A DNA stretch of 59,573 nt, filler included, from Jimgerdemannia flammicorona (taxonomy: Eukaryota), in NCBI GenBank assembly GCA_003990765.1. It is 3 parts of 3 records of this genome, joined end to end, with 100 filler letters (N's around TTAATTAATTAA, not from the genome) between each part and the next. Parts side by side here need not be neighbours in the genome. Positions count along the whole stretch, not along the records: positions 1 to 19,795 come from RBNJ01001849.1; 2 more parts are not named here. One strand, 5' to 3'. Shown one piece after another: positions 2,011 to 45,839 of this stretch. A program made the translations under genes and the position numbers. Positions within the stretch are counted from its first letter, which is position 1; each line of letters starts with the position of its first letter. The notes beneath the pieces are model-generated. The model was not told where the DNA came from. It made no database searches and saw only the letters and a program-made list of their open reading frames with translations.

Positions 2011-4086
2011 TGTAAGAGGGTTACTTTTTAGGGTAATCATTATGTAGTTCTGGAAAGGTTTTCTGGATATTCTGGATGTTCTGGAAGACTGTTTTCTTAT
2101 GGTCAGGATCAATTTCATATGGAGTACATCCTCTACGCTTATTGATTTCAAGATCGGGTTGATATCTCAACCAAAGTCCTTTTTTTGGACTAGTTCTGGA
2201 TGTTCAGGATTTTCCATATTTCAGAAAGTTCAAGAAACTAAGACCAGCTTAGTTGAATTGGCATATCGCTGCAGACAATACCCAATTAGGAAATTTCGTG
2301 ATGGGGTTAGGAGTAGGACCTAACAGAGAGTGGATTTACTTAAGAGTGGTTTGTGGGTTATTAAATAGGTTTATTTGCTATTCATGATATTGCTATACTA
2401 GGAGTAGTTGTATGAAGGGATATTGTGGGGAAGTGCTCAGGAGTTGTGTTCAGATTGTTCAAGTCTGTTTCAAGTCTGAGATTCTGAGGTCTGGGGGAGG
2501 GGGTATTTATACTAGTGAGGGGCTATCTGGACTATGCTGAATATAGATGTAGCACTAAGTGCCTTGCTGAGTCAGAATGCAGTCACGTAGTACAAGTGTG
2601 ATCTGACATATCAAGAGATCATCTGACTGCTGAGTCAGTTCACAGTTACGTCGTACAAGGCTAATCTATCTATACTATGACTGCTAGACTATTTATAGGT
2701 TTAGACACTATCTGGGTAGTCTTCGATGACATCACCATCAATTGCATCATCTCTGATGAAGTAGTCATCTAGGAAGAGTGGTTCGCGGATTACTTCTCCT
2801 TGTTGGCTGAGGTAGTAATACATTGGGACTTCATCTCCATCCCACAGGATAGCATCGTCTGTTTCATATGCTGGATAAGGTGTTGGTGGGCGAAGGATGG
2901 GTATATTGTCTTCGCTTTCATCAGATTCGCTGTCTGTGTATCTTCTATAGGTTACAGCACTATGAGTTGTGGGGTTATAGTATGCTGGTGGCTGTGGTTC
3001 ATGTCACTCATACTTGGGTGGTGGAGTGGTTGGTTCCATCTCGAGGGTTGTCTGGAGGTACAGGTTGTGTTCTCCAGTCTCTTCATTGTAGTTGAAGTAG
3101 TTGGGGGTAAACGCGGGTTAGTATTCGTGCCAGTGGTCATTGTCCCAATAAGTCTTGTATGTAGTTATGAACTTTTGTAAGTTCATCAGCAAGGTTGGTG
3201 GAGTGATCAGGGTTGGCAGAGATCCTTGGCTAGAGGTCATGTCGGTATCAGAGGGATCATTGTCTTCTGCTTCGTCTTCATTGAAGTGGATTATATCGTA
3301 GACATCCTTTATGGCGTATCCAACTTGAGGCATTTGTAGGATGTGGTCATCAGGGTGCGGGAAGGTTCTGTCTGTGGTCTGGATGTATTCGAGGTACTTG
3401 TGGTTGAGTTCTTGTATCATGTCATCGATTTGACCATAGGACAGGGTAGCAACCATTTCGCTGGTAGTGACTCAGAGGCAGGGAATAAAGGTGTTGTACT
3501 CGTAGAAGAGTTCTCGATGTTTGCGGGCAATGAGCTTCTGGTGTTGAGACATCTGGGTAATATCTGTATCGTGGTAGTGTTCAACCATGTCTTCTAGGAG
3601 GCAGCCAATCTGGTAGTAGCTTGAGATTTGTCTGATTCGGTGGGCCTCGCTGAGCATGTTCAGGGCATTCCATTAGGCTTCCACAAAGTAGAGGAGTGCC
3701 AGGCTATGGATATTCATGAGGGGCAGAGGGGGTGTGGCTCGGTTGATAATGGCATTCCAAATGTCAGCGCGGATGCGGTTGTAGATCTCAGTGGTCATGT
3801 TTGTGTGTTTGGAAGTTGTGATTGTTGTTTGTTTTGGTTCTCTGATTCGACGCGTCTCAGTGCTCGGTATATATGCATTTAGTCCTGATTGGTAAGATTC
3901 CATTTGTGTAGATCCTGTGTTCTGTGACTTCATATTGACTCAGCTTTGTGCACTGTGACTTCGGTTTGACTCAGCTTCATGATCAAGCAGATGATTTCCA
4001 GATTTGTTTGGAGGTCACATGTGATTTCAGTGGCTTGTTCAGAGGGTAACGTGTAATTTCAGTGGCTTAGAGGTTGTGCGCTTACA
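2011..4086 (-). repeat. 5' LTR of A1 (2076 bp)
   Basis: tgtaag at 2011 and cttaca ending at 4086. Homologous to 43768-45816 and 52300-54373. TATA-like gtataaata near 2503-2512 (minus). Confidence 0.93.
2701..3798 (-). pseudogene. LTR(U3)-encoded accessory ORF, 365 aa, unknown function (copy 1)
   Basis: Track ORFs 3673-3933, 3472-3657 and 3118-3456 are in one frame that continues to TAA at 2701. Four internal stops, all compatible with CGA/CAA deamination. Confidence 0.8.
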
Positions 4087-6561
4087 TTCTTAGTACCAGC
4101 AATATGCTTGATTTTGATATTAAAGAGTACAAGGATCTGCATCCATCAGACCTGTCTTTCTGTAAGGATTAACTGTATCTAAATATATCAGAGAGCTTCA
4201 TAGTTGATCTATAAGATAAATATTTTGCCAAAGAGAAAGTATCTTTATATCTGTAGAGATTGGATGATTATAAGGAGTTCTTTGTCTTGTATAGTATAGT
4301 TTCTTTTATATTTATTAAGTTTCTGAGACAGTTAGGCAACAGAGTACTTATGTTGAGTTAGAATAGCTCTAATAGCAATATTTGAGATATCAGTAGTAAC
4401 TACAAAAAGTCCTGCTAGATCAGGACTGATCAGGATTAGTATATCAGTCAGTATTCTTTTGAGGGTATTCATTACTATGGTACATTCTTCTGTCTATTCT
4501 TTTCGATATTATATAGTATCTTTCTTAGCAAAACTTATAAGTGGGGTAGTAATTGCATAGAATCCTTAAATAAATCTCCTATAATATTCTATTAGTCTAT
4601 TGAATCCTCATAGACTTGAGAGTTTTTGGAATAGACCAATTACAGATTACTTAGGTCTTCTTGGAGTTGATGGTAATACTATTTTCAGAAATAATGTGAC
4701 CTAGGTATTCAATTTCCTTCTTGAAGAAATGCCTTTTTTTTTTTTTTTTAATAATAGCTTATATTCATAGAGTATATCAAAAACCATTTATAGATATTGT
4801 AAGTGAATAATGTTATTTGTACTATATACCAGAATATTATCTGAGTAGATCAAAATAAATACTCTAAGATATTTTCAAAAGATGTTATTTATCAGTATTT
4901 AGAATATTACTGGTATATTGGTAAGACTAATAGTATTATATAGAATTCATAATGTCCAAATCTTGTTCAAAAAGCTGTCTTAGAGATATCTTTTTCTTGA
5001 TGCAGATTTGGTAGTATCTAGATGTAAGATTGATGAGTGAGAAGGTCTTGGCCTTGTATACTTGGTTGAGTAGTTTATTAATTCTTAAAAGTGCATATTA
5101 GTTCTTAATTAAAATCTTATTGAGTAATCAATGCACATATAGAGGCTTCTATTCTTCTTGCAGATAAAGAGAATTAGTATATAATATAGTGATTTTGATG
5201 AACAGATGAGACCTTTGCTTACCAATTCTACTAGTTATTCCTTGAGAGTTTCTAGCTCAGATTGGGCTAATTGATAGATTCTACAGTGGGGTGGGTTTGA
5301 ACTAGGAATAGTATCAATACTATGTTCTACTACTCAAACTGGTAGTAGTTCTTGAGGTTCTTGAAAAACATCTTCATATTTCTTGAGAAGTTCTTAGAGA
5401 TTATCTCCCTCATCATCTTTATCCTTTAGGAGTTCAGAGAGCTCTTTATCATCTTTTTCTAGAGTCTCTTTAACTATACATATGTAGATATACTGGTCTT
5501 ATTTCTGAATCAGTTTCTACATTTAAATAGCAGAAATAACATTATATCTAGGCCTTTGTTTCTTCTTAGTATACTCAGATTGTAACTTGATATCTCTCAG
5601 AAAGATCATATTGATTCATCAATCAATATAGGGATTCTTCTGTATGAGCCAGAACTTTCTAAGAATGAGGTTATATCTAGGAAGATGTGTAATATAGAAG
5701 GTTTACCTTATAGTATAGTCTCCAAGTTATAGAAGTGTGTTTTTGTATATCTTGAAGAGTTTCTGTATTATTCTATTTCCAAAAGTAACAATGTTTTCTT
5801 CTGGATTCCTTTGCATCTTAAGATAGAATTTGTTAGCTGTTTTTTGATTGAGATAGTATTTGCTTACTCCACTATCAATAAGGGTTTCATTTGATCTTTC
5901 CTTGAAGATAGATATATTCTATATTAGTTTTTTACTAAGTGATAATTATTTTTGAGATAGTTTCTTCTTCCCAATCTTATATTTCTCTATCTTCATTATT
6001 GATGTTCTTGATTTCCTCATCCTATCATTCTGGAATCATTGGCTTATATCTCTTAAATTCAAGAATATATGTGATATATTCACTTATAGTACATCTTGAT
6101 TCAATATGGGTATTGTCTTATAGGAATATATTCATCAGTAATATACTAGTATTATTCTGGTTCTAGTCTTGAGATTCTTCAATATAGACAATCTTCTGTA
6201 TCTTAGTTTCTCTTTGGCTTTGTCAGAGTGCTTCTCTAATGATCCAAAGGCTTTTTCTCTTTTATCAGAGAGTGACAGTTTCTTTATTTCTTCTACTTTG
6301 AGATCATTATATATTACTTCAATAATGGCTTAGGCAATTTATTTTCCACATATGTATGATATTGACAGTCTTTTATCTAGTTTTATATAGTAAGACCTTA
6401 ATCTCACCTTTGAACTCTTGGTCTATAACTCTTCCAACTATACAGAGCCTCTCTTCTTTAGCTAAACTACTCCTTACTATAAGGTGGATATATGTAAGTT
6501 CCTTTGGCAACTTCCATCTCAATACCTATACTAATTGTTGCTTACTTGTCTAGTTTAATAG

Positions 6562-7980
6562 TATAATGTGCCGGCTCAATAGAGGCAAATTACAAGGTTG
6601 GGGATTGATGTAGTTTGGCTTGAGCCCCCAGTTACTTTGTCAAAAAGCAACAAAATGTTCTAAGATTCCTGAGGTCCTTGGTGTTCAGTGGTATAATAGT
6701 CAAAGGCTGGATATCTGTGAGCAATTTCCTTATTGGGATGGTTCTCTGGGTGTAGCAGTGATTTGTGTGTGAATGAGTTTCCTTCTTGAGTCAACTGAGA
6801 ATGCTACAATTTCATGTAGCGAGGCAATTTCCAAAAGTATGCGATTTCTGGGTGATGGTCTGGGTGCGATGATCTTTGTGTAGCGTGACGATCTCTGTGT
6901 AGTGTGGTGGGTTCCTTATGCGGGACATTCTGATAATTTGAGGGGTAACTCGATTTGGCTCACTGGGAATAGAGGATGGCACAGATCCTTCTTACTGGGA
7001 ACTGTGCTGTCAATGGTTAACTCGATAACTCAGGCTCACTGGGAACAACGAATAACTCAGATGGCATAGATAACTCAGATGACATGATCAGCTTCAACTA
7101 GAAATATTACTCGAATGGTGCGAGTTCTTCCAAATCGGGCTCTTCTGGGAATATGATAGTGCAATATAGATAACTCAAAGGTGGCGGATGATGTGGATTC
7201 TCTGGAATCAGCGGATTTCTGGGAACTAACTCAGATTCTTGGCAAGTTACATCAAAGACTGGCTTCATTTGCATGGGGTTATGTCGTAGACTGGCTCCAC
7301 TGCAAAGTTGCATCAGAAAGACTGGCTTGTGGCAAGAAAGGTGGGCTCTTCTGGGGATATGGTAGATAACTGGGAAATGGCAGCGAAGTTCTTCCTTGAA
7401 CTTGGCGGCAAACTGGGATTCTTCAGGCTTATCTGGCAAGCATACCAATAGCGCAGCTTATTCCTTAAGTAGTAGGTTCTTCAAAAGGTGGCAAAGTTCT
7501 CCTTGAACTTAGATGGCAAAATTAGCCTTGTATTGGAAAGTGGACTGGAGTGGGAATAAGGGGACCAATTGCTCAATCATTAGAGGCTTCTTTGGTTTGC
7601 ACTTCAATTTGGACTCATTCTTTGTATCAGAAAGTAGACCAGAGTGGAGAAATAAGCTCACAATCTCCTAGCAGTGGCTGTAGAGTTCCTCTTGAAGTGT
7701 GGTAGGCAGACTTGTCTTTTGCTTCAATTTCGGACTGAGGTTTATTCACTCTTGTCTCTGGGATAATTTATACAAGTTGGTTGCTATCTAGTTACTATGT
7801 GGCTAACTATAGATCTGCTACTTATGGCAGGTGTACAGAGTCTGTACAGGTAAACAGACTCTTCCTGGTATGTCTGGCTATTTATACAGTTTTCCATAGC
7901 AATGGTTGCTGGTTACTATACTGTGTGTTCATGTCATCTGGTTAAGATATAATTCGGATGGTACATTTTGGTTTGTCACA
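6562..7980 (-). repeat. 3' LTR of element B
   Basis: Direct repeat of 15621-17097; ends gtcaca at 7980. Purine-rich agtagggg tract adjacent on the minus strand (7985-7992). Confidence 0.95.
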
Positions 7981-8019
7981 TCAGCCCCTACTGAAGGGTA
8001 GTCTGTCCCAGACTATTCT

Positions 8020-8535
8020 TCAGTCATCATCCCAATAAGCATAGGATGCTTCTGCATCTATACCTGTTCCATCATCTTCATTATCTGTACTGGGGTTACT
8101 CTATTCTATGGGCTCTTCTTCTTCTTCTGGGAATAGGATTTCAACAGAGTTGATGATGCTCAAATAGGTAACAGGGTTCATTCCTTGAATATCATTCAGA
8201 GAGAATTGTGCCTGTGTCAGGGCTGTGATATTTCATTTATAAATGGTGTATAGTCTGTCTGCAGCAGTAGTGTCTCTTCTGGTCAGACCTGTGGTGTTCC
8301 TGATGTAGGTCTGTTCTGGGGCTGGGAGGTTCTACAATTGCTCACTGATTACATAATAGGTCTGCAGTTGGTGGACTTATGGTAGGCATCTGACCAAGGT
8401 GAGATTTTCTTGATGAGCTTGGATCCTTTGAAGGGGGCTTCCATTGGCTTGGCCAAATTGGGGTAGAGGGACTGGTAGGGCTTAGAAGGAGCTGAGGACC
8501 AATGTCTGGAGGCACTGATCAATCCTTTGGCTCAT
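8020..8535 (-). pseudogene. Family B accessory ORF3 (~170 aa), homolog of the family A LTR ORF
   Basis: ATG at 8535 overlaps the integrase stop (ccATGAg). Reads MSQRIDQCLQ...PLP...VHQLQTYYVISEQL...AADRLYTIY, then an acidic tail. Five internal stops. Confidence 0.7.
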
Positions 8536-11500
8536 GGTGTAGAGGGGAAATATAGTTTGAGGTGATTGATATATACTGGTATTCTCAGGGTTTATCCATC
8601 CATGCTTCTTAAATAGATACTGGTTCCTCTAATGTTGTGTACAAGATAAGGTCCTTCCCATTTTGGTTCTAGTTTGGCAGCAAAGTTTGTCTCAATCATG
8701 CTTCTCTAAACTAGGACTTGATCTCCAATCTTGATCTCCTGATCCTTCTGTTTTTGATTATAATAATTCTTTTGTCTTTCCTGGGTTTTGATAATCTATT
8801 CTTGGGCTTGATTACATAACTGTTCTGCCTTCTTGAGGAGGTCTCCGAGATTCTCATGGTCAGCAGTTCTGGTTCTCTTGGCAAACATCATTTCGAATGG
8901 CTTTTGTTTGGTGGAGGTGGCAGGGGTGTTCCAAATTTCCCATAGGATCTCAGGTAAGCAGAGGTCCCAATTAGTAGGATTGACTCGGGCAAGTCCTTTC
9001 TTGATGGTCTGGTTCATTCTCTCTGTCATGCCATTGGTCTAAGAGTAGTATGATGTGGTCCTTTTGAGGTGGATCTTGTGGATTCGGACATAACTTATGA
9101 TTATGTTGTTGATGAATTCTGTGCCTTGGTCAGAGATAAGTTCTTCTGGGAGTCCATATCTGAGTGTGAGTCCATGGAGGAGGCCTACAATGGTTAAGGC
9201 ATCTGCGATTTCCATTGGGAAAGCCTTGGGCCACTTGGTCAGATGTTCCACAAATATAAGGATGTATTTGTTTCTTCTTAGTGTAACTGGTAGAGGTCCA
9301 ATTACATCTACTCCCCATCTTTGAAAAATGTGAGTGGGTGGGGGAATCAGTCGCAGAGGGGCTTGATAGTTCTTCTTTTCTTGATACTTCTGGCAGATGT
9401 CACATTTCTGAATGATGTCTTGGACTTGGGTTCTGAGGTGGGGCCAATGTTGATGTTGTTTTTGAATCTTGTCTTCTATGCATGTCTGTCCTTGGTGGGC
9501 TTTCTGATATTCTTGTCAGATGAGATTTTCTTATTCCTTGATGGTCTGAGGAGCTTCCTTTAGAGTGTGGTTCCTTGGGACACCCTTCTTCTGATTCATT
9601 TGGGCTGGCGGGAAAGTACATCAATATTGTTGTGGGCTTTCCCTGCTTTGTGAATGATAGTGATTTTGTAATCCTGAAGGATAAGGATCCAGTGGGCTAG
9701 GATTCTGGCAGGTTTCTTGTAGTTAAATAGCCATTTGAGGGCTATATGGTCTGTGATCAGGGTGAACCTTTTTCTGATGAGGTAATGCTTGAACAGGGTG
9801 ACCACCCATATGACAGCAAGACATTCCAGTTTGGTGCTACCATAGTTCATCTGCTGCTGATTGGTAGCTCTGCTTGTATAAGCTATCATATGGTGCTATT
9901 GGTCAGGTCCTTCTTGGGCTAGAACTGCTCCCAGGCCATCTTTGGAAGCATCTGTATACAAGATGAATGGCTTCTGTAGATTGGGGTGCACAAGAATTGG
10001 TGCTGTAGTCATGCGGTTCTTGAGTTCTCTGAAGGCTTTTTCCTGTGATTCTGTCCATTTGAATGGCAGTCCTTTTTTGAGAAGGATTCAGATTGGGGCA
10101 GCAATTTGGGCAAAATCTTTGATAAACCTTCTGTAGTAGGATACTAGCATCAGAAATGATAGTGTTTCCTTTGGTGTCTTGGGTTCTGGCCAGTTGTTGA
10201 TCTTTTCAGTTTTCTTTGGATCTGCATGAGTTCCTTCTTTCGAAACCATGAATCCTAGGAATTCAAGTTTCTGTTTCCCAAAATAGCATTTCTTTGCATT
10301 CAATCTCAAGTGATTCTTGTGGGTGAGCTTGAAGAATTCCTCTAGGTGGTGCAGGAATTCTTCGAAATTTGCTGAATAGATGTTGGAATCATCTATGTAT
10401 ACAATCAGACAGTAGTGGATCAAAGGAGCATAGACCAAATTCATCATCCTCTGGAAGGTTGGGGGTGCATTGCAAAGTCCAAAAGGCATTCGGAGGTATT
10501 CAAACAGTTTTCCTAGAGCAAGGAAGGCTGTCTTCTGGATGTCCTTCGGGTCCATGGAGATCTCATGGAATCCTGCGAAGAGGTCCATACTGCTGAAGTA
10601 TCTGGTGTCTTGTAACTGGTCCAAAAGGTCATCGATTCTGGGCAAAGGATAAGCATCCTTTTTAGTGACTGAGTTGAGTTTTCTGTAATCCATGCAGAGT
10701 CTCCATCCTCCTTTCTTTGGTACAATAAGTATAGGGCTGGCCCAGGGGCTGGTAGAGGGTTGGATGACTCTATTGTCTAAGAGTTCTTGGATGTACTCCT
10801 TTTCGAATGTTTTCAAGTGATGGGGTATTCTATAAGGTTTCTGCTGGATGGGTGTTGCATTTCCTTTATTTATGCTGTGGTGATATGATAGATTGTATGG
10901 TAGGTTGCCATAATTAGTAGTGAAGATATCTTGATATTTGTTGAGAAGTTCTACTAGTTGTTGCTATTGTTGAGGTGTCAATTCTTCTCCAATGTTGGTG
11001 GAACACTTCACTCTCTTCTGGGTCACAGAGGGGCCTTTCCTTTCTTCTGAGACCTTTTGCCATTTCCTGATCAGTTTAGTTCATAAACTTCCCTATGAGT
11101 TCGGTTGAGAAAAGGCACCAGATGTCCTATGATGGTTCCTTTTGGCAGGATGATGGTCTCCTAACTTTGGTTGGTTGCTCAGGAGTGTACTGGATTCATC
11201 TTGTCAGGGAATGTGTGTCCCTCTATGTCAAGGTGTGAGATATCTTCCTTGGGTTCAAAGAAAAGGTTCCTGGGGTCAGGTGGTGCAAATATTTCGAAGG
11301 TAGTTTGTACTCCAGGCTCCAGGATGAGATTCTTGTATAGTCTGACTGGTTGCTGGTATACTTGCTGGAGAACATTCCTCTTGAGGTGGTTGACTTGAAG
11401 GAGATGTACCTCCTTCCTGTCTAAACTTCCAAATCCTTTGGCTTGTCTTGTTCCTTTAGTTAGTTCAGGGACTTCTTGTAACTGTGGGGTGTTGACATTC

Positions 11501-13749
11501 ATGAAGACTGCTTGGGCAATCTTCTGTCCTCTAATGATTCAGTGCCATTCTACACTGCTGTTATGTAGGATAACCTTGATTTCGCCTGTATATCCAGGGT
11601 CGATGGTTCCTCCTTCTACAGTTATCTCTTGTCTGGCAAGTCTGGACCTTGAGGTCAGTTGAATATAAGCTCCTTGCGGTGGCTGCAGGGCTAATCCAGT
11701 TCTGACCATGAAGGGTTTTCCAGGCTTGATAGATTCATCCTCTAGGCTGTGAGGATCATATCCTACATCCTCTGGGTGGGCTTTGGTCGGGGGTTTGGCC
11801 TTGGGGTGCAGCAGGGCATACTGGGCAATGTCCTTGCTGAGTTTGGGCTTTCCTAAGGCTGAAGCTCCACTAGCAGAAAGCCTCCAAGCTCTAAGGTTGA
11901 GGTGTGGCCATCTGGCTCCAGTAGAGGGGTCTTGGAGATAATTGATTCCCCTCCTTTCTGTAGGGTCAAGGGCTTCTATGAAGTTGGTGGCATCTTCTGC
12001 CCATCCTTGGTGAGTTGCATGTCTGATGAGAGCTAGGATGTCTTCTCCCAGATCATAGATTTTGGGGATTCTTTTTTTTGTCTTCTTGGTCTGACTTTTT
12101 CGAATCTGGCTTTTTCAGATCTGGCTTCGGTTATCTCCTTTCTTCAAAGTGTGCACTGCAACATCATAACTGAGGTGAATCTTCTGATGTCTACAGTCTC
12201 AGCAGTCAGGGTGTCTCCCATGGTTGCATTATCCCATTGCTCGGAAATGGTGTTCCTGGCTGTTGATCTCTTGTTGTCTTGGGAATCGATACCCATCTTA
12301 GTCATAGGTGGATGGAAGAGTAGATAAGGGATATATTTCTGTCTGGGTGAAGATACCTTGTCCTCTAAATCAACTTTGTAACCTTGTGGTAACATCTTGA
12401 AAAGTGGTTGACTGTGCAAGTGTAGTTAGAAGTTCTGGTCTCTGGGGTCTCTGTCTTTCTTGTTGGTCCAACAGATGACATTGATAACAGTAGTCTCAGG
12501 GCAAGTAGAAGATCATTTGGTGTAGACATCTTCCTAGCTGAAAAGCTTTCTCTTGATGAGTTTCTTTCTTGGGAATAATGGTGATTGTACTGGGTCCTTT
12601 CTCTGTGTTCCAAGGGTCATTGTCTTCAGGTGGTGTCCAGTGAGGGTCATTCCAGGGAATGAGTTCAGGGACCTCTTCTTCATCAGGTACTTCTTGTTCA
12701 GGAACTTCTTGGTCAGAAGTTTCTTCTTTCTCAGATGATTCTTGACCCCAAATTGCTTGTACTTCTGCTGCTTCAGTTGCAGGTGTTTCTGGAACATGTC
12801 TGCATTTCTTCTTCTTCCTTCTGCACTCTGAGCATGCTGTGCCAGGCGATTTCCTTGTTCCCATGATCTTAGAGGAGTGCTTGGGATACTTGTGTCTCTT
12901 GAGGCATATAGGGCATCCTTTGGCTTCCCCTGCAATGGCTCCAATGGTGATAGGGATAGTGTTCTTGGCCCACACATTATCTTCTGGTCTGTCATCCACC
13001 AGGTTAATTCGGGGACTGAGTCTGGGATTATTTCCATCTTCAGATTCTTCTTCCTCTTCTGTAGTAGACTCCTCACTGCTGGCATATTCTTCTTGAATAG
13101 TGACCTTCTTTTTCTTCTTTGATTGGTTATAGCTGGTCACCTTAACCCTATATTTCTTGCCTCAGTAATCAAACTTGAGTACTTGTTGGCCAATATCAAC
13201 AATGGCATTCATTTCCTTCATCCAGTTGGTGCCAAGAATCATGTTATAGGTGATAGCTTCAGTGACAACAGCTTTGGGGATGGAGAACTGAATGTGTCCA
13301 AGAGAAATAGTGATATTTCGTACTTCTCCAAGGGGTTGAGTTCAGGCTCCATCTGCTACTATGATGCTGAGGTTGGATGGTCCATCAATGAGCTATTGGA
13401 GGGTGTCCAAGAATCGTTTGGTGATGACACAGATAGCTGCTCCTGTGTCTATAAGGATTTTCGCTTTTTGTCCTCCAATATTTCCATGTAGGTAGGTGCT
13501 GACATGTCTTTCAGCTGCTTGAACAGAGATAGGAGCTGGTTCTTGCTGTGGGATTGGAACTCAGCCAGTGCTAGACCTGGTGGTTCTCAGCAATTTGTTT
13601 TGAACCCCAGCTGGTGTCAGTTGCAAGAACTGCAGGAGAGGGACTTCCATCTTGGTCTCTTGGATCTTCTGCCAGGCTTCATTGTAGATATCTCTAGGCA
13701 TCATTTTTGGGGCATACTTCTTTTTGGGATTTTTGGTGACAGGTTCCAT
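8532..13749 (-). pseudogene. pol: Family B pol: protease, Cys/His insert, dUTPase, RT, RNase H, integrase
   Basis: LIDTGAA ~13435-13455; GGTIDPGYTGEI ~11580-11615; RT 10088-10816 (LCMDYRKLN, MPFGLCNAP, YIDD); RNase H YTDASKDGLGAVL ~9925-9960; IN ISDQGTEF, ERMNQTIK, WEGPY. Ends at TGA 8532. Confidence 0.93.
11420..11825 (-). pseudogene. dut: dUTPase domain of family B
   Basis: Motifs VGYD, RSRLA, GGTIDPGYTGEI, KIAQ, RQAKGFGS. Confidence 0.9.
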
Positions 13750-13763
13750 TCTTCTTGTTTCAT

Positions 13764-15560
13764 TTATTTATTCTCTGGTGGCAACTCATTTGTCTCAGGA
13801 GCAAAAGGTGAGGGGGTTTGGGGAGGTGTTTCTACTTGTTCCTCCATATGTTCTTCATCCTCTTCTTGGATAATTCTTCTGCTAATGTTCCTGGATGGTC
13901 TTCCTACAGGCCTCTTTCTTTTCTCTGCTGGATAGACTGTTTTCCGGGTTGTAACCTTGGTAGGGTACAAATCTAGGTCACTGTAGTCTTCACTGTTGCT
14001 TGCTTCCTCGAAATCTTCAATAGGATGGGCTTCAGTCTTTTTGTACTGAGTGTCATTCCTTCAGTTTGCTGGTTCTGGGTCTCTTCGATCACTTCTTTTG
14101 TTGTCACATTCAGTGGCATAGTGTCCAAATTGTCCACAGTAGAAGCATTTGACTTGGGCTCTGTCTCGGACAGGGTACCTTCTTTCTTCTTGCTGGTAAT
14201 TCCTATTATTTCTTAGTGGATAACCTTGGCTCCTCTGTGGTGGGTACCCTCTGTTGTTTTGGTAGTCCCTATTTTCACATGTGGTGAGTTTTTCAATCTG
14301 TCCAACCAATTGGTCTAACTTGGAGCTGAGGTCTTGGATTTTGCTTCTGTCCTTCTTTCCTTCCTTGGCTGGCCTTCTTTCTTTGAACCTTTCTTGTCCT
14401 TGAAGGAGTCCTTGTAGGGTTTTGATCAGTATATCTTCTTTATCTTCCTTCTTATCATGATCACTCCAGGTGGTTCCTTGCCTGACATCAAAGAATCCTT
14501 GGGCTGTATCTACTTGCTCTTCAGACCTTCTGATGCCTAAGGTGCAGACATGCTGGGCAATATTCAGGGGAATTCCCTTCATAAAGGTCATTGGACCTAT
14601 AATGTCTTGGTTGGTGGCATTGAATCCGGCAGAATGCATTCTCTTCTGGATTCTTGTGAAGAAGACTCTAGGTGATTCTCCAAGATTCATCTTCATTCCC
14701 ATGATAGATTCCTGAGCCTTGTGGCAGGTTTCATTTCCTGCATATTTTTCAATGAGCCAGTGGACCATGGCTTCGTATTTTAGCTCATCAGATATTGCTG
14801 CTTGTATCTGTCTTGCTAGTTCTGAATCTTGGTTGTTTGCTGTCCAATGGAAAATTCCTCTGGCTGGTTCTCTGAGCTGTGCTTTATAGATGGCAATTTT
14901 TCTTTCATCTGAGAGATTTCTCAAGGCTGCAATTCCTTCAATTCCATCAAGGAATTCTCTGGGATCTTCCTTCAGGTATCCTGCAAAGGTTGGCAATGAG
15001 GTGGCCATTTCCTTGTCACTTTTTTCTAATTCTGGTTCAAGTTCGGATTCTGATTCTGATTCAGTTTCTGAACTGTCACTAGAGATGGCAGTGCTTGGAT
15101 ATCTTGAAGATGGTGTTCTGGTCCTTAGATGGGATGGAATAGGCCTAGATATTCTTGTAGGAACTACTTCCAGTTCTATAAGGGGTTGTGGTAGGGTTCT
15201 ATTGGTGAGGTTGGTGGGACTGGTGTGGGGTGTCTGGCTGTAAAGTATTGGGTCTGTGTAATAAGGTCTTCTAGTTCTTGTGTAAGTTCTCCAAAGTCTC
15301 TAGCAGGGCTGCCTGTATTGTCTGGTTGATCTGATTGATCTGGTTGATCTGGTTGATCTTGTTGATCTTATTGATCTTATTGATCTGGTTGGGGATTTCG
15401 GGCTGTACTGCCTCCTGCTTCTGGTTGGGATCCTTCTGATACTGGGTAGTTGGTGAGTCTTGAGGTGATTACTGCTCTTCCTGTCCAAATACTAGTAATG
15501 ACCAGTTCTCCTGTAGTGGTAGAGGTTAGTGTTGTATCAAATGTATCCAATTTGACTGTG
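13764..15560 (-). pseudogene. gag: Family B gag (capsid-like region plus CCHC knuckle)
   Basis: ORF 14061-15008: LPTFAGYLKEDPREFLD...CFYCGQFGHYATEC. The same frame extends upstream (DQP repeats) and downstream. Confidence 0.9.
15325..15390. repeat. 9-bp tandem repeat (gttgatctg), Asp-Gln-Pro repeat in the gag frame
   Basis: Directly visible. Confidence 0.8.
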
Positions 15561-15601
15561 GGTTCTTATGAGCTGAAAAGTCATGTCGATTTTAAAAATC
15601 T

Positions 15602-15618
15602 TCCCAGTTGAGCCCCCA
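15602..15618 (-). promoter_or_regulatory. Primer-binding site of B, tRNA-Pro type
   Basis: Minus strand TGGGGGCTCAACTGGGA resembles the tRNA-Pro PBS TGGGGGCTCGTCCGGGA. Confidence 0.75.
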
Positions 15619-15620
15619 AA

Positions 15621-17097
15621 TGTGATGTGCTAGCTCAATGGAGGCAAATTACAAGGTTGGGGGTTGATGTAGTTTGGCTTGAGCCCCCAGTTACTTTGTC
15701 AAAAAGCAACAAAATGTTCTAAGATTCCTGAGGTCCTTGGTGTTTAGTGATATAATAGTCAAAGGCTGGATATCTGCAAGCAATTTCCTTATTGGGATGG
15801 TTCTCTGGGTATAGCAGCGATTTGTGTGTGAATGAGTTTCCTTCTTGAGTCAACTGAGAATGCCACAATTTCATGTAGCGAGGCAATTTTCAAAAGTATG
15901 CGATTTCTGGGTGATGGTCTGGGTGCGATGATCTTTGTGTAGCATGGTGGGTTCCTTATGCGGGACGTTCTGATAATTTGATGGGTAACTCAATTTTGCT
16001 CACTGGGAATAGAGGATGGTGCAGATCCTTCTTACTGGGAACTATGCTGTCAATGGTTAACTCGATAACTCAGGCTCACTGGGAACAATGAATAACTCAG
16101 ATGGCATAGATAACTCAGATGACATGAATCAGCTTCAACTGGGAATATTACTTGAATGGCGTGAGTTCTTCCAAATCGGGCTCTTCTGGGAATATGATGG
16201 TGCAATATAGATAACTCGAAGGTGGCGGATGATGTGGATTCTCTGGAATCAGCAGATTTCTGAGAACTAACTCGGATTCTTGGCAAGTTACATCAAAGAC
16301 TGGCTTCGTTTATATGGGGTTACATCGTAGACTGGCTCTACTGCAAAGTTGCATCAGAAAGACTGGCTTGTGGCAAGAAAGGTGGGCTCTTCTGGGGATA
16401 TGGTGGATAACTGGGAAATGGCAGCGAAGTTATTCCTTGAACTTGGCGGCAAACTGGGATTCTTCAGGCTTATCTGGCAAGCATACCAATAGCGTGGCTT
16501 ATTCCTTAAGTGGTAGGTTCTTCAAAAGGTGGCAAAGTTCTCCTTGAACTTAGATGGCAAAATTAGCCTTGTATTGGAAAGTGGACTGGAGTGGGAATAA
16601 GGGGACCAATTGCTCAATCATTAGAGGCTTCTTTGGTTTGCACTTCAATTTGGACTCATTCTTTATATCAGAAAGTAGATCAGAGTGGGGAAATAAGCTC
16701 ACAATATCCTAGCAGTGGCTGTAGAGTTCCTCTTGAAGTGTGGTAGGCAGACTTGTCTTTTGCTTCAATTTCAGACTGAGGTTTATTCACTCTTGTCTTT
16801 GGGATAATTTATACAAGTTGGTTGCTATCTGGTTACTATGTGGCTAACTATAGATCTGCTACTTATGGCAGGTGTACAGAGTCTGTACAGTATACAGGAC
16901 CTGTACAGTGTATAGAGTCTGTATGGTGTACAGAGTCTGTACAGGTAAACAGATCCTTCCTGGTATGTCTGGCTATTTATACAGTTTTCTGCAGCAATGG
17001 TTGCTGGTTACTATGCTGTGTGTTCACATCATCTTGCCTAATTGTTCACATCATCTGGTTAAGATATAATTCAGGTGGTACATTTTGGTTTATCACA
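15621..17097 (-). repeat. 5' LTR of element B
   Basis: tgtga...tcaca termini; PBS adjacent. Confidence 0.95.
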
Positions 17098-19028
17098 ATA
17101 GTTACTTTTATACTAGAGTAGAGATCATAGCCAGTATTAGATTTATATACCTTGTCTGGAATCTTTATAGTGATGTAGAATCTCTTGACTTTGATTTTCT
17201 CAAAGATTCCTTTTGAGTCATCTTCTATTATAGTGATAGTGTGTGAGAAGGATGATCTTTTGTTAGTATTGGTCTTTTTATTAGGACATTCATGAGATAT
17301 ATATTCTCTCTTTTTGCAAGAAAAATATGCTCTCTTCTTTATAAGTTCTTCTATTTTCTTATTAGACAGTTTTTTAAATCCTCTTTATAGTCTTGAGGAC
17401 TTATTTCAGAGTTCATAATTCTTCTCAAATTGATATTGTTTACCTTCTTTATTATTGATTCTGTTATCTCTTGGCCTTTGGGCTACAAGGATGGTATACA
17501 CTTGGGTAACAGCTTATCCTAAGTACTATTGCTCATATATAGGCAATTATAGAATTATCCTTGTTTATAGATTTTCTCTGATAGCTATCCAGAGATAGTA
17601 TTAAAGAAATAGGTAGCTTGGGTTTCATTTATGGTCTGCTCTCACTAGCTATATTCTGCTCCAATATTATTCAGAAGAGTTTTGAATCTTATAGCAAATG
17701 CTTTGAGGTCTTCTTTTCTACCATTATAGAATTATAGATTCTTGAGTTTGGTTCTGGCTTCAGGGCTTCAGAACTGCTGGATAATTAGCTCTTTTAGACC
17801 TATAGTAGCTGAATGGACTTCATAGTCAGAGTGATTATCATCTCTATTGCTTGTGACAACTTTGGTATAGGTTTCTCAGGTAAGAGAGTTTACTTGTAGA
17901 TTATACTACTACTAAACTACTGTACCTATAAAGTGTGTGGCAACCTTTTCTATCTGTGAGTTTGCAGTTATATAGAGATCTTCAATCTCATACTATATAT
18001 ATATTGTTATCAAGAATACTGTCTGGGCTCTGGTAGTTATTCTATCTATTAGTATTGATAATTTGAATCAACTTGACTTATAAAAGTTACTACTTGGTCT
18101 GCTTTGCCTTTGAATGGAGTGAGGTAGAGTCCTTTTGTAGGCTTTTTTGCTTCAATACTAAGATAAAGGACTTGAGTAAGTATAACTACTTGATCAGTCA
18201 ATACTGCTATCTTATTATCAAGTAATATCATTCTGCTGTCTCTATTATTTATTTGGTGAAATGGTTGAGTTTTATCTTCTTCTATTGTTAAAGTATGTTG
18301 ATTATGGTTTAGACTTGATTTTTTTTATAATATTACTGAGATAAGTAAGCCTGTAGACTAGTGGTTTTGATAGAGTAACTATTTGATCTACTGTGATCTT
18401 CAGTAAGCTTGATATTCTTAATAGTGGTTTTGTAATAGTGCTGGAGCCACCAATGTCTAGTTTAGATGTTTCTTTAATTACTCTCCTAGGTCTAGATGAT
18501 GTGGCAGGGGCTTCACTGGAGCTGACAGATTGTAGTTCTTGTTGCTAGATTATTCTTACTTATGTATAAAGAATTTGATGATAGAAGTGAGATTTATTTT
18601 AATAAGAGTAGTATCCTTGATAGTTCAGGAAGATCTTGACTTTATAGTAGCAATTGTTTAAGAGGTAGTTCAGGAAGTGTTTGGTTGTAGCCTCAATGGA
18701 TTCTCAGATATATTTCTTATAGAAGTGGCTACCAACTAGTTTGTTGAAATCCTCCTTAAGTTTGAAAGTATAGAGAACTTCTTTATTGAGTATGAGAAAG
18801 ATATTGAATACTTTTTTGATAGTTTCATTATTGAGTTTGTCAAACTCCTCTTAGCTGATATGGATTTTGATCTACTTAGTAATAATTCTATTAAATTCTT
18901 TTGCTTAAGTCTAGAGAGTATTCAGAGTGAAGATTCATCTTGACTATTACTAATAATATTAACAATATTGACCAGTTCTGATTATCTATAATAGATTCTT
19001 GAAGAAAGGTTGCTTTTGGGTGGAGAGT

Positions 19029-19046
19029 AACCATCCTCTACTACCA
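19029..19046 (-). promoter_or_regulatory. Primer-binding site of C1, tRNA-iMet type
   Basis: Minus strand TGGTAGTAGAGGATGGTT, one C>T from TGGTAGCAGAGGATGGTT (complement of the AGCAGAG-type initiator tRNA 3' end). Confidence 0.8.
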
Positions 19047-19049
19047 AAT

Positions 19050-19486
19050 TATAATAAAACTATATACTATAATGTAGCTGATACTTAATATTAGAAGTAT
19101 GTCAGATTTCTATATCTTGAAAATTTGATCTTCTTTGACTCTGCAGAGTCTTCAGGATATAGGAGTGGGTGAGTCTGAAGTGTATCTACCTACAGGCTTG
19201 CTAATTCTATTGCTTTCTCTTTACTTTAAACTATTTTGATCTGAGGTTTATTTACTCTAAGATACTGAGTTATTTATATAAGTTTGCTAGCTATAAGACA
19301 GCTAAGTTATAACTAAGTTATGAGTCACTTTTCACAAATATTAATCCTTGACATTTGTGAAAACTTTAATGTTTGTGAAATGACTGCTATTTGTAAGGCT
19401 ATACTATATTGGAAATTGGGTTTAGGTATAATAATCAAATGTCTAATTCCCCTGATTCTTATTTCTAATTCAGATCAACTGTCACA
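19050..19486 (-). repeat. Probable 5' LTR of C1
   Basis: Adjacent to the PBS. Ends tataa (TGTAA-derived) and tgtcaca; contains TATA/AATAAA core at ~19240-19280. Outer boundary uncertain. Confidence 0.55.
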
Positions 19487-19759
19487 ATACTAATAGAATT
19501 AAAATATTACAGATAATCAATGATGACTATTGGCTCTAAGTTATAAGTTCATAAGTAAGTATTGAATTCGAAGTTATCTAGTATAGTAGAGTTCAGATAT
19601 TGCTTTTAGATTCTTGAATAGATAGAAATAGCCATACTTATATTCTAAGTTAATCAGACTCAGAATTATTAATAAGTTAGATCTGAGAATTTGTGATAAG
19701 AATATTGCTTTATTCTTATATATAGAGAAAGTAGAGCTGAGATTATAATACACTTAGTA

Positions 19760-19939: not shown

Positions 19940-22900
19940 GTTCACAGATCCCCTCTACCAGCTGGTAGCACCACCCCCCTTATGGACCCCAACCAACCTA
20001 CCACCCAGTTAACAGATCCCCCAACAACCCCTCCCACCTTAATAACTTCTCCTGTATACTCATCTATTGCTCTTTCTCGAAAACAAAGAGCCAATGTCCA
20101 GCCAACCCAACCCACACTGCTAAAACCCACCCTACAGTGAGCCAACCATTGCTGACACCCCCCACTAACTGAGATTTCAAATCCTCCCAGTGATCTCACT
20201 CTCTATCTGGCCTCCTCACTACATCCAGCTGAGGCCTTACTGCTATCCAAAAGTCCCCCAGAACCTCACACTCTCCTAGCCAATGTTCTGGCATTTGTAC
20301 AAAACCCCCAGCCTGCCCTATATTATAACACTCACAATCTAATTGGCCACCATCCACCAGATGCCCAGCTCAGAAATTCAACATGACATTCCTCTACAGC
20401 ATCCACCACCATACCACTCAGAACTTTGGAGGCAGTCACCTCTGCAGCTTCAGCACTTCAAGACCAGACTTCTGTCCAGTCCCACTCCTTACCAATTCCA
20501 ACTGCCTGCCACCTGCTTGGCCAAAGATCCTGGCCAAGTCCTTGCTGACACTCTACTCCCTCACCAATATCAAACTTAGCAAGTGGTATACCCCCCAGGA
20601 GCAGCCTGTCTCATTGCCACATATCTGGTCCCCACCTCTCCTCTCCCTTATTGCCTCACCAGTGCAGGTCTATCCAGTGTGCTCCATCCACCACTCCCCA
20701 CTAGAAGCCCTTATACTGTAGCCATCAGCTATCCTTTAGATCCACCAGAGAAAGCAAATCACCCAAGGATCCCCAAGGAGAGAATCTCATCTTCCATACC
20801 TTTTGTATTAATGGTACCCAACCTCCACTCTGCAGTTCAACAGCCTGCTTCAACTACCAAGTTTGCAGATAATATAGCCACTTAGAGAAATCAACAAGGC
20901 CAAGTCCTTCTCTAGCTACCGGCAATGCAAGAGTATCCCAACTGATCTGGACTCTCCTCCCTGCCCAAATCCAATCTCGAGCCAGTGCTGTCAGCTTCTT
21001 CACCACCCAAGCTAGGAAGTCTAAGTAATAGACCATATACTATAGCTTGGGGAATCAATAGACATTCAGAAAGTACACCCTTCCCACTAGAGAGATGTGG
21101 CGACCCCTCTAGCCTCTAAGAGCCTCCCCCCAAATAGCCACCCTTCTCTCCCACCACACCCATAAGACAGATCTATATATAGAAAGAAAGATGCCCAGAT
21201 ACTGCACCACTTCTCCTGTAGGGACAATTCTTCTAATGATATCCCCACCCACCAGCCCATTCCCCAACACCATTGTCTTACACTTATGCCAGTTGAGTTT
21301 TGCCCCTGAGTATGCCTCATACCAATTCACTGTCTCCTTAAGTATCTCAATATCTGCTACTGATCCAAGTCCAACTACCATATCATCCACAAAGGCCCCC
21401 ATCTTCCACACCACACCATATATAGATAGCCCTGCTACCTTCTTCTGTATTCTATCTATCAAAGGTTCCAAAGAAAGGGCATAAAGGATAGAAGACAGTA
21501 GGTCTCCCTGAGGAACTCCTCTACTCAAGGGGAATGCCAATCTCTGGTGACTATTGCACATCAGCACTGCTCTACTGCCCTCTAATAGATCCAATATAAA
21601 AGCTCTAAAATATGGGGGAACACCAATTATATTCAGCACCTTATCCAGCCAAACCCACTGAACATAGTCATAGGCCTTCTCTTGGTCCAAAAAGACCAGT
21701 CTTTCATCCAATCCACAAGCCTGGGCCCCTTCAATAACTCTGTGCACTCAGGCAGTCTTATCTCTAATAAACCTGCCTCCTACAAAACCCCACTGCTCCT
21801 CACCCAGTATCTGTTGGGCAACCTTCTGAAGTCTTGCAACAATCACCTTAGTCACCATCTTCCTATCCATATCAAGAAGCATGATCAGCCTCCAGTTCTT
21901 CCAGTCCTCTCACCTCCCCTTGTCTTTATACAGTAAGGCCACCAGTCCTAAGTCCTGCTCACCAATCCACTCACTATTCAGGAGAACATGGTCACAGAGA
22001 GCAGCTATCTCCCCTAACACTCCAGGAACCCTCACCATCTTCTTCCAGAAGTCCCAAAGCAATCCATCCTCTCCTGGTGCTGTCCCAAGCTTAGTTGCTG
22101 CAAGGACTCTCCAGATCTCCTCCTCTTGGACTGGTATAATCAAGTCTTCAAGTCCTTCTACTTGTAGAGGTACCCACTCCTCCAGCATGACTCCAATCAC
22201 CTCTTCATCAGTACCCCCTTCCTCCTCACTCTACAGACCTCGCCATCTCTCCTTTAGTACCCCCAAGATCTGTTGTATGCTATACACCATATCCCCTTCA
22301 GCATTCAAAACCCCATCCCACTGCTGTTGCACCCTCCTAGCTTAGAGGAGCCTAGACAAGTATCTAGTAGGCTACTCTCCCTCCTCAAGCCCCTGCCACC
22401 ATAGTCTGGTAGCCATTCCTTTTATATGAATCACCTCCTCCTCTCTCAATATCTGTTCCAGCTCCACTATCTCCAATTTCACCTACTCTAATCACCAATC
22501 CTTCACCTCATCAAAAGTAAGCAAATCAGCCCATTCCTCCTGCAATCTAATCAGCCTATTAAAAGCACACCTTACTTGCTTCCTTCTCTGCCTCCCAGCC
22601 TCCCTACCAGCACCTCTCCAATAAACCCTCACAGCCTCCTTCAACCTCATCCAATAGACCCCCACAGAAGAACCCTCATATATTCAGTTGGTGATCTTCA
22701 CTTAGATGTCCTCCACCCATGGGTCCCACAACTCCTTCTCAGCCAGCAGAGAGGAGTTAAGGTGCCAATGTCCAGGTCCATCACCACTTCCCCCAAACTG
22801 CCCCTGACCCAATAGCCCCCAGTGATCAGACCATGGGTACTACTCTACCTCCAAAATCCTCCAAACATCAGCACCCCAACATTCAGCCATCAGAATTCAG

Positions 22901-23399: not shown

Positions 23400-25444
23400 A
23401 TTAATCCCATCCTCTACAAATCTGCATTCAACTCCTCCTGTGCTAAATCCAAATTATGTTCTGCAGCCAGTTCCTTCTCTTTCACCACCTATGTCTCCAA
23501 CCCAATCAGAAGTTCAGCTATAACTCTATCCTCCTTTTCCTCAAAGTTCTCACAATACTTCAGGCAGACCTCCTGCCAGAGTTGCAACCCATGACACTCT
23601 GCCCAACAGTAAGCTGCATACTTACCAGCAACAACTGCCAGCTCAGCCTCTCTCTCTGCATCAATCTCATATTCCTCCTCCTCTAGAAGAATTGTCAGTA
23701 TCTCTGCCTTCAGGGCCCCCACCACTCTATCTCCATACAGGATCTGTGCCCAATGCTCCTCAGATATCACATACAAGTCCACTTCCCCCAACTCCTCAGC
23801 TGCAAAGTTATCCATCATCTTGCTCATCTACAGCAGGTTCTCCACCTCCTTCTCTCTCAGTGTCCCAGGCCTTCCCACATCTAACATCATGATGTCAGCC
23901 CCCACACTGGCTGTCTCATCCCACCCCTCTTCCAGGACATCTACCAGCTCATCCTCACCAACTGCCACCACCTGTCCACCTTTTGTCACATCTGAAACCC
24001 CAAAGTGTACCTGCTGAGTACCTCTCATCAGCTCATCCTCTATCATCCAACCCCTCATAGCTGGACCCCTCCAGACTAGAGGGGGGGTGTCATCTATAAC
24101 CTGTTCCTAGACTTTGAACATACCATCTGCATATGGGTCCTTATGCAGCACCTTCTCCTTCTCCTCCAAGCCCCCCTCCACCTCTCCTCTACTCTTACTA
24201 GCCCAGACACTCACCTCTACTCCCTCAGACTCATCAATAGCCCCATCCTTCAACTTCATCCCTCCTTCCATTCTCATCAGCAGCTCCCTCTGTCTCTTAT
24301 GTCCTTGAGCCCTCTCCCACTGCCTCTTGTCAGTGCAAATGTATTTCCCATCAATGATCTCCAGATATGTCAACTCCTTGTACAACTTCCATACTTTTGT
24401 CTGCTGCTCCACAGCCCCACTCATCTCCTCCAGAGCCTCCAACAGATCCTTCTCCTCCTTCTCACTCCCTTTCACCCTTGACACTCAACAACTGAAAGCC
24501 CCCCAAAGTATCACCACCAGCCAGTCACTCATCTTCCCAATGACCTCCTTCTCTGTCAGTCAAATCTTGATATCAATATCTCCAGTTCTGATAGTGGTCC
24601 CCTCCCAAATTTGGAAACCAATATCAACCACATTACCATACTCAGCCATCATCTCCTCAACCCTCCTTCTTGTCTCTACTGCCATCACTATAGGCACCCC
24701 CTTTACTAACAACTGAACCACCCTGGGGTCTCACTTCAGACAATACACTATAGGGACCACTACTTCCCCAACTACCACTCTAGCCTTCAGAGCCTCATCT
24801 AGTGCACTGGGCTCCTCAAAGCCCACCTCAATCCCCTCCAGCCCCTTCAGGAACTTTACTGAGACAGCTCTAGCCACCTGCTTCAAGATAAGCCCCAGGA
24901 CTATTCTTGCTGTCACTGCCAGACCCCTGAAGTACAAGGTAGCTACAAACTCTGAAATTGACTTCTTGAGTAATAGTGTCACTGCCAGCCCTGTCACACC
25001 ATCGACCAGGTCCCCCTTCTACTTTGGGCCCATCTGCTCAGCCCTCTCATCTATAGTCACATCTGGATTTTTTTCCAGATTTCCAGTCAAACTGCCATCA
25101 GCAGTCCTACCACTACTTCCAGGAGCTACCCCACCAGCTCTACCTCCCACTGGCTGAGACCCAGCCCCTCCAGCTTCCCCAACCTTTTGCTTCCCCTTCT
25201 CTCCTGCCTGCCCACTATAAGTCTATACTGGCCAACCACTAGCCTGCAGTATTTCAGCAAAGCTCCTCCCCTGCCATCTACTGGCCCCACCACCAGCACC
25301 ACTTCTACTGCCTGAGCTGCCCTGCCCACTTGGGCCACCGAAAGACCTTATCTCAAGCCCATACTCTTATCTGACATACTGCCAGTTGAAGGCCCTAGAT
25401 CCACCTAATCTAGTATATATATCAGCTTGCTTACTAGTTGATAT
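23400..25444 (-). pseudogene. LINE ORF1 remnant
   Basis: Fragmented acidic/charged ORFs upstream of ORF2. N-terminus YTRLGGxRAFNWQ is shared with 38806-39072. Boundaries approximate. Confidence 0.65.
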
Positions 25445-45816: not shown

Positions 45817-45839
45817 ACTTGGTAGTAGCAGTTTACAAT

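Follow-up and report, generated by a model that had tools for sequence, protein, structure and literature searches.

The segment at positions 8535-8023 (minus strand) of the window is, judged from its intact relatives, a decayed copy of a genuine, conserved and unnamed accessory gene of about 171 codons; by the window we mean the whole stretch of Jimgerdemannia flammicorona DNA that was analysed, 59,573 nucleotides with filler included. It is the third gene of a dUTPase-bearing Ty3/Gypsy family without chromodomain (family B), mutated in the window copy, and ends about 40 nt ahead of the polypurine tract and the 3' LTR. An ORF carried within the LTRs of another Gypsy family (family A) is, by its own relatives, a second real accessory gene. 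Extra ORFs of LTR retrotransposons are already known and almost none has a known function; the two described here are real, selected genes without a named relative, and all relatives recovered for them derive from metagenomes. The full account, in which the family B ORF is a genuine third gene whose start overlaps the integrase stop, its product may serve as a regulator or adaptor, and it is probably homologous to the family A ORF as earlier proposed, is regarded by us as moderately probable when taken as one reading; its parts are graded separately below.

Two diverged Gypsy elements in the window

Self-comparison of the window revealed two complete LTR elements, one of family B on the minus strand and one of family A on the plus strand. 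A third family A copy extends from 4077 to 232 (minus strand), close to the window start. The features of these elements are as follows.

17097-6566, minus strand: element B, a complete LTR element with LTRs of 1.42-1.47 kb that are 89.6% identical
15625-17097, minus strand: 5' LTR of element B, followed by the primer-binding site TGGGGGCTCAACTGGG
8532-9530, minus strand: integrase of element B (Pfam Integrase_H2C2 and rve), with zinc finger, core and an SH3-like end carrying KWEGPY, without chromodomain
7981-7992, minus strand: purine-rich tract of element B, directly preceding the 3' LTR
6566-7980, minus strand: 3' LTR of element B, 89.6% identical to 15625-17097
43768-54373, plus strand: element A, a complete LTR element with 2.05-kb LTRs that are 88% identical
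43768-45816, plus strand: 5' LTR of element A; the ORF occupies U3, and LTR positions of about 1576 and 1689 mark a TATA box and AATAAA, respectively
52300-54373, plus strand: 3' LTR of element A, 88% identical to 43768-45816
2013-4077, minus strand: LTR of the third family A copy, whose internal part continues to about 232, close to the window start

When the elements were searched against Pfam with stops read as X, element B gave zinc knuckle, protease, dUTPase, RT, RNase H and integrase without a chromodomain, and element A gave dUTPase, protease, RT, RNase H, integrase, SH3_Tf2-1 and a chromodomain. Both present the features of dUTPase-bearing Ty3/Gypsy elements (gag zinc knuckle, protease, RT, RNase H and integrase in Gypsy order). 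The dUTPase precedes the protease in A, a chromovirus, and lies between the protease and the RT in B; chromodomain and SH3_Tf2-1 were present in A only of the two families. The preliminary description had set the families apart by dUTPase position, chromodomain, primer-binding site and target duplication: the first two differences are borne out by the Pfam domain order, and the primer-binding-site strings and the duplications (4/5 bp against 5 bp) were found as it described them. The tRNA assignments of the two primer-binding sites we take to be Pro and iMet; no tRNA gene was found within the window. Judged by their proteins (RT-RNase H 34% and integrase 25% identical), families A and B are different, deeply diverged Gypsy lineages.

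The observed/expected ratio of CpG was 0.00-0.15 across the elements, which fits heavy C-to-T decay. Element B was found to be inserted in one copy of an AT-rich repeat (27-30% GC, about 4.9 kb, two copies about 75% identical); the interrupted copy is 4321-6562 plus 17097-19759, the uninterrupted one 26033-30960, and the insertion fixes the ends of element B and a target duplication of 4-6 bp. Matches to element B (7981-15624) were obtained from 2590 contigs of one soil metagenome run, 303 of them at least 99% alike, and by this count the element is high-copy in some organism of that sample.

Several other sequences were observed in the window. A repeat of 330-500 bp flanks element A as direct copies (42540-43041 and 55713-56214), with one inverted copy at 56203-56534. 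In a GC-rich stretch with strongly negative GC skew (20-26 kb), a 212-codon open frame (21109-21747, minus strand) matched RVT_1 with an E-value of 1.7e-18 and is probably a non-LTR retrotransposon. Kelch repeats occur in host-like gene pieces at 31594-33590 (minus strand), along with a hydrophobic stretch and a tail rich in Q, N and P; these pieces lie in the sole part of the window with a CpG ratio near 1.0. The element types, this Kelch-repeat gene and the matches in soil metagenomes would fit a soil fungus as host. Four runs of 44 N are present in two pairs (19796, 19852, 39685 and 39741), and inverted mutual similarity was seen just inside both pairs (20077-20333 with 39391-39135, and 25103-25425 with 39123-38801).

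A conserved third ORF follows the family B integrase

The third ORF of family B and its junction with the integrase were located as follows.

8023-8535, minus strand: third ORF of family B, decayed, with 5 stops inside its 170 codons and a terminal stop
8532-8535, minus strand: ATGA, the start of the ORF overlapping the integrase stop (ATG 8535-8533, TGA 8534-8532)

The translation of this frame in the preliminary description was recovered letter for letter (window 8535 to 7990, minus strand). In-frame stops interrupt the window copy at codons 18, 53, 68, 101 and 144, and the terminal stop follows ...YAYWDDD. In the relatives of the ORF these five stops align with Q, Q, Q, (R, W, Q) and W codons, respectively, and position 8379 was C on the minus strand in every covering contig from two soil runs, which changes stop 53 from TAA to CAA.

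A total of 17 relatives was obtained, all derived from metagenomes and none named beyond 'hypothetical protein'; a word-indexed protein search led to six, a profile search to five true ones and a cluster look-up to seven more. The profile search, carried out on 1.84 billion representatives with the B profile, returned six matches, the sixth of which, P0012 (671 aa), was rejected as spurious, a short motif repeated five-fold accounting for the match. The tandem repeat of P0012 spans about 32 residues (...FFSKPMPIPTFR...LHLFSWQLR...) and weakly matches the B protein motif LSSFQSLPIPLPQF five times.

An uninterrupted full ORF was present in 7 of the 17 relatives (P0002, P0015, P0003, P0017, P0005, P0019 and P0018), all of which end in ...Y-W-(D/N)-D-D and share 49-98% identity with each other; the remaining relatives are shorter pieces, P0014 and P0016 being left out of the inspection. 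The Met aligned with the window ATG is the start of P0002, P0015, P0003 and P0017; in P0018 the start is the corresponding Met, three residues further in, and the calls of P0005 and P0019 begin at Mets lying 19 codons upstream. In an 11-row alignment of B proteins, the other rows were 51-98% identical to P0002.

Selection, which the preliminary description had raised as a means of judging the ORF, was measured as pN/pS. Pairwise comparison of the window copy with the metagenome loci L001 and L002 and of these with each other gave 0.275/0.744, 0.270/0.810 and 0.216/0.751 for the B ORF (ratio 0.29-0.37), and 0.064-0.085/0.39-0.49 for the integrase in the same comparisons, the pN of the ORF being three to four times that of the integrase. 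The B ORF is under purifying selection and evolves three to four times faster than the integrase. The contigs of L001 and L002 carry an integrase upstream of the B ORF. The earlier concern that family B might have fixed stops or frameshifts fails because intact relatives exist. No further A or B loci were found in scans of viral or genome contig collections.

The family A LTRs carry a second ORF

Three copies of the family A ORF were identified, all inside the family A LTRs of about 2.05 kb.

2701-3798, minus strand: best copy of the family A ORF, 365 codons with 4 internal stops; this is the copy quoted in the preliminary description
44056-45153, plus strand: copy carried by the 5' LTR of the complete element A
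52588-53685, plus strand: copy in the 3' LTR of element A, with the start codon changed to ATA

The same order was observed in all three LTR copies, namely the ORF at about 281-1380, a TATA box at 1567-1576 and AATAAA at 1689-1711, and with the TATA box and AATAAA downstream in every copy the ORF is placed in U3. Its place in the element RNA is the 3' end, following the polypurine tract and some 700 nt after pol. Two intact relatives were found: P0013 (128 aa) is 90% identical to the N-terminus of the A ORF without stops, and P0001 (247 aa), 64% identical, covers the C-terminal rest. These relatives show that the family A gene is real. A TATA-like site was noticed at about LTR position 205-212 (e.g. 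window 43979), about 70 nt upstream of the A ORF ATG; the pattern is present in two of the three LTR copies, the third reading TATATAC there, and the site may be an LTR-internal promoter for the A ORF.

The earlier view of both ORFs as real, conserved and non-env accessory genes holds in the light of their intact relatives, with no env Pfam family and no membrane segment in either. The maximum 19-residue Kyte-Doolittle mean ranged from 0.94 to 1.46 among four B proteins and from 0.57 to 1.14 among the A proteins, and the B protein is, by this measure, soluble and without a membrane segment. An env-like ORF3 of the Gypsy, errantivirus or Athila kind was rejected, as no signal peptide, membrane or fusion segment and no env Pfam family were detected.

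Relationship between the A and B proteins

The two ORFs had been proposed to encode one protein family on the strength of matching PLP and YY positions. These positions were confirmed: PLP occupies residues 23-25 in B and 24-26 in A, 34 residues separate PLP from YY in both, and the alignment through them is ungapped and offset by one residue. When the window was scanned in six frames with the B profile, the five best non-self matches were all chunks of the A ORF, with a best E-value of 0.08. The offset +1 diagonal, which anchors both start Mets, was the best of 280 ungapped diagonals (-7.3 against a mean of -84.6, sd 18.1); its score was reached by 2 of 20000 permutations, a p-value that is post hoc, the anchoring having been noticed on the same data. 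With only the metagenome B proteins and P0013, the same offset produced 14 identical positions over 100 columns, more than any other of the 38 offsets tried. Profile Smith-Waterman alignment of A and B scored 42.2 against a null of 21.1 (sd 3.0), which none of 200 shuffles reached, and 29.5 with a reversed profile. With the profile HMM of B, the natural protein P0013 reached 11.2 bits, the A copies of the window 5.7-8.1 bits and reversed sequences at most 3.4 bits; real sequences outscored reversed ones in both directions. In the predicted models, the first helix of both proteins spans residues 2/3-18 and leads into a P-L-P loop (mean pLDDT 50.4 for B and 34.7 for A). We consider the chance that the first 100 or so residues of the A ORF are distant homologues of the B protein to be slightly better than even.

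Not far short of even is the chance that the two ORFs are unrelated, each having been acquired or evolved separately, and that the N-terminal likeness reflects chance together with the composition and periodicity common to helical proteins of one genome. The A and B proteins gave an E-value of 0.13 in BLASTP. In hhalign the probability was 3.4% and 4.6% (P about 0.01), the score was reached by 4 of 300 column shuffles, and the reversed profile scored 22.9 against 25.2. Three of 3000 composition-matched shuffles reached the 11.2 bits of P0013 (empirical p about 0.001), and for comparison the best of 177,635 PDB sequences gave 12.9 bits with the B profile. No A-family protein was returned at E <= 0.001 when the B profile was run against the 1.84 billion representatives, and B was absent at E <= 1 from the six-frame window scan with the A profile. 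Conserved B columns did not hold a significant excess of identities (8 of the 14 fell on the 36 conserved columns among 100, p 0.07). The ORFs also differ in length (171 against 365 codons) and lie on opposite sides of the polypurine tract. On the other side stand the start-anchored diagonal, the five top window matches, the scores of the reversed sequences and the helix-loop order of the models. The likeness of the acidic tails was rejected as a sign of homology, since the second HMM domain scored -1.1 bits and is hence compositional; the YWDND likeness is not retained in P0001, which reads YWGENQW.

How far the likeness departs from chance depends on the test, with p from about 1e-2 to 1e-4. 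The proposal of one family common to A and B is no more than suggestive: the pair beats about 99% of shuffles in profile-profile comparison, but the hhalign probability is 3-5% and the reversed control is nearly as high. A comparison of AlphaFold folds had also been suggested, and here both N-termini were predicted to be helical, but the models are too poor for fold comparison. The B ORF changes faster than the integrase, and a gene inherited vertically since the split of A and B would therefore sit at the detection limit.

The stop/start overlap and the route of translation

The integrase frame ends in ...LKLYFPSTP-TGA with an overlapping ATG, as previously described. The ATGA overlap recurs in the independent locus L001 (CCATGAC), and L002 reads CCATAAT, in which a single G>A destroys both the ATG and the TGA; the protein relatives of L002, P0005 and P0019, read ...AQAM-IDQR. 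With ATGA in the window and L001 and its loss by one change in L002, the overlap geometry is reconstructed as already present in the ancestor of copies with ORF identities of about 50%. The overlapping stop and start codons typical of termination-reinitiation are present in the window and L001 and lost in L002, and a purine occupies position -3 of the ATG in all three.

In the mechanism that we tentatively put forward, ribosomes finishing pol on the full-length element RNA would reinitiate at the overlapping AUG and produce the B protein. We give reinitiation on full-length RNA somewhat less than an even chance. For the B ORF, a subgenomic RNA, either spliced or made from an internal promoter, has roughly the same probability; the gene would then be real but its start uncoupled from the pol stop, and the ATGA would reflect compact packing, a reading to which we likewise assign a probability somewhat below one half. 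ATGA would be conserved under any expression route, provided that both codons are kept. Reinitiation after an ORF as long as pol normally requires a dedicated upstream RNA element, according to a review of such systems (PMC10275272). Such an element found no support here, as none of 26 predicted upstream RNA pairs showed covariation, with three sequences only. A UGGGA lies 125 nt upstream of the overlap and is explained by the conserved KWEGPY codons of which it is part. L001 and L002 contain a candidate splice acceptor, CTCAAG, some 20 nt ahead of the ATG.

The family A ORF bears on the same point: lying about 700 nt beyond the pol stop, it is not couplable to pol, so at least this ORF requires another route, which must be a spliced or internally promoted RNA. 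The env genes of retroviruses and errantiviruses are expressed from a spliced subgenomic RNA or an internal promoter. Against an uncoupled start in family B stand the retention of the overlap geometry across copies about 50% identical in the ORF and the purine at -3 of the ATG in the window, L001 and L002. Synonymous differences were also fewer 21-80 codons upstream of the ATGA (about 8600-8775), at 0.10-0.20 against 0.27 overall in the window, L001 and L002 only; this lowering could, as a weak hint from three sequences, be the mark of a cis-acting RNA element.

Other readings of the B frame

A further reading takes the B ORF as a C-terminal extension of the integrase, reached by a -1 frameshift or from an upstream ATG in the overlapping frame (MGRT...). 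It draws on the -1 frame ahead of the ATG, which in P0006 and L002 runs open over 40 to 55 codons and in the window and L001 is interrupted by a single stop each. We nevertheless regard it as very improbable: no slippery heptamer was seen near the overlap when the sequence was read by eye, the upstream Met positions vary among P0005, P0019 and P0006, and the alignment with family A begins at the conserved Met. Across the last 42 or so integrase codons (8536-8700, minus strand), the -1 frame starts at an ATG within the KWEGPY codons; it is probably non-coding, since the upstream Met positions differ among the relatives.

The idea that the stretch is decayed non-coding 3' sequence whose frame is open by chance retains a negligible probability, for although the window copy has about one stop per 30 codons (5 in 170, compared with 3 stops over about 360 codons of RT-RNase H and 4 over about 290 of integrase by hand count of the X-read translations), it is refuted by the seven full-length uninterrupted relatives with a common start and end, by the codon alignment of the stops and by a pN far below pS, and the C-terminal motif is strongly conserved.

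Features and possible function of the B protein

Turning to the product of the third gene, its N-domain (about residues 1-133) is basic with a pI of 9.6, and its tail has a net charge of -15. The AlphaFold model is helical from residue 2 to 133 and weak (mean pLDDT 50.4); the Atlas model of the B protein has a pTM of 0.68. The acidic tail, ...ILFPEEEEEP-x-EWSD...DDGTGIDAEDAYAYW(D/N)DD, is among the best-conserved parts of the protein and holds two conserved tryptophans, which points to a short linear interaction motif. No Pfam-A family was assigned to P0002, P0005, P0001 or the A ORF at E <= 0.05, and the best E-values against PDB sequences were 0.64 and 0.33. The fold search of the B model against the PDB gave no match at E <= 0.001 (best E 2.8), the model being too weak for this to carry meaning. 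In the Atlas, P0002 and P0013 were given the same five nearest cluster sets at 0.90-0.93, with structure rows at TM <= 0.37; these common sets may be generic attractors for unrecognised helical proteins.

A working model can be suggested in which the helical basic domain would attach to its target, a nucleic acid or a protein, and the acidic-aromatic tail would recruit a host factor in the style of an activation domain. That the B protein is such a trans-acting regulator or adaptor, with the helical domain targeting and the tail recruiting, we rate as speculative and rather unlikely. The tail presumably resembles activation domains, Argonaute-hook tryptophan motifs and Arp2/3-binding acidic ends, and a tail so sharply conserved, acidic and tryptophan-bearing, if a short interaction motif, is directly testable. 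A wider reading joins three propositions: an ancient or exchangeable module spread across deeply diverged Gypsy lineages, placed before the polypurine tract or in U3; a trans-acting product whose tail engages a host machine; and AUGA reinitiation in family B. We see this combination as a long shot. Its tail would act, as we suppose, for example as an Argonaute-hook-like silencing suppressor or an activation domain.

Comparison with known systems

We know of no sequence relation between the A or B ORFs and the 'add. ORF' of fungal Gypsy elements or ORF0 of the rice element Retrosat2. Within the few main texts covered, the literature gave no description of this protein, of an integrase-overlapping third ORF or of a U3-resident Gypsy ORF, and no paper was found that uses the phrase 'ORFs inside LTRs'. 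Fungal Gypsy elements carry additional ORFs of unknown function, termed 'add. ORF' (Novikova et al., 2010; PMC2864245); ORFs like A or B were not seen in the portion of that paper available to us, whose supplementary tables of fungal element structures might describe similar ones. Like these and like Retrosat2 ORF0, as far as the accessible passages describe them, the B ORF is extra, lineage-restricted, located beside gag-pol and without a recognisable domain. The accessible part of the Retrosat2 report (PMC3485330) gives a Ka of 0.257 against 0.078 for ORF0, which evolves faster than pol, as does the B ORF with a pN of 0.22-0.28 against 0.06-0.09. According to the same passages, ORF0 is located upstream of gag and not in the LTR (PMC3485330), unlike the B ORF, which is 3' of the integrase with an ATGA overlap, and the A ORF, which is inside U3.

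In bdelloid rotifers, ORF3 types are common to unrelated retroelement lineages (Rodriguez, Kenefick and Arkhipova, 2017; PMC5408684, consulted in extract). One accessory ORF type on diverse backbones that also carry dUTPase is just what the preliminary description had in mind for A and B. The rotifer ORF3s are clear homologues with a GDSL esterase, a DEDDy exonuclease or an env, in the extract of that paper (PMC5408684), in contrast to the A/B protein, which has no known domain and a homology at the detection limit. If A and B are homologous, accessory genes would either pass from one Gypsy lineage to another or endure in several, even where the integrases are only 25% identical. Such homology, if true, bears on the acquisition of regulators by retroelements, as in retroviruses.

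Among viruses, victoriviruses have an AUGA stop/start overlap, and hypovirus CHV1 reportedly employs termination-reinitiation at overlapping stop/start codons. To our knowledge, no LTR retrotransposon has been shown to use stop-start reinitiation, and a limited literature search, drawing on partial texts, likewise found none; reinitiation after pol at the AUGA of family B would, if true, be the first such case in an LTR retroelement. In caliciviruses, influenza B and the SART1 retrotransposon, ribosomes reinitiate after a long ORF by way of stop/start overlaps, AUGA for example, and the process needs an upstream RNA element there, by the excerpts at our disposal (PMC10275272). Family B is like them in that its long upstream ORF closes with an AUGA overlap, not far from the 3' end of the RNA. 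It is unlike them in that its UGGGA, 125 nt upstream, belongs to the KWEGPY codons and that an upstream ribosome-binding element is unsupported, with 0 of 26 pairs covarying in three sequences.

Retroviral genes situated in or overlapping U3 include MMTV sag and lentiviral nef. The A ORF differs from both in showing no similarity of sequence or fold in searches of Pfam and PDB sequences, and its host, going by the types of element present, is not a vertebrate. Like them, it occupies U3, ahead of the TATA box of the LTR, and is thereby found at the 3' end of the genomic RNA and in every LTR copy; from this location in U3 it follows that every LTR copy, any solo LTR included, would carry a protein-coding gene.
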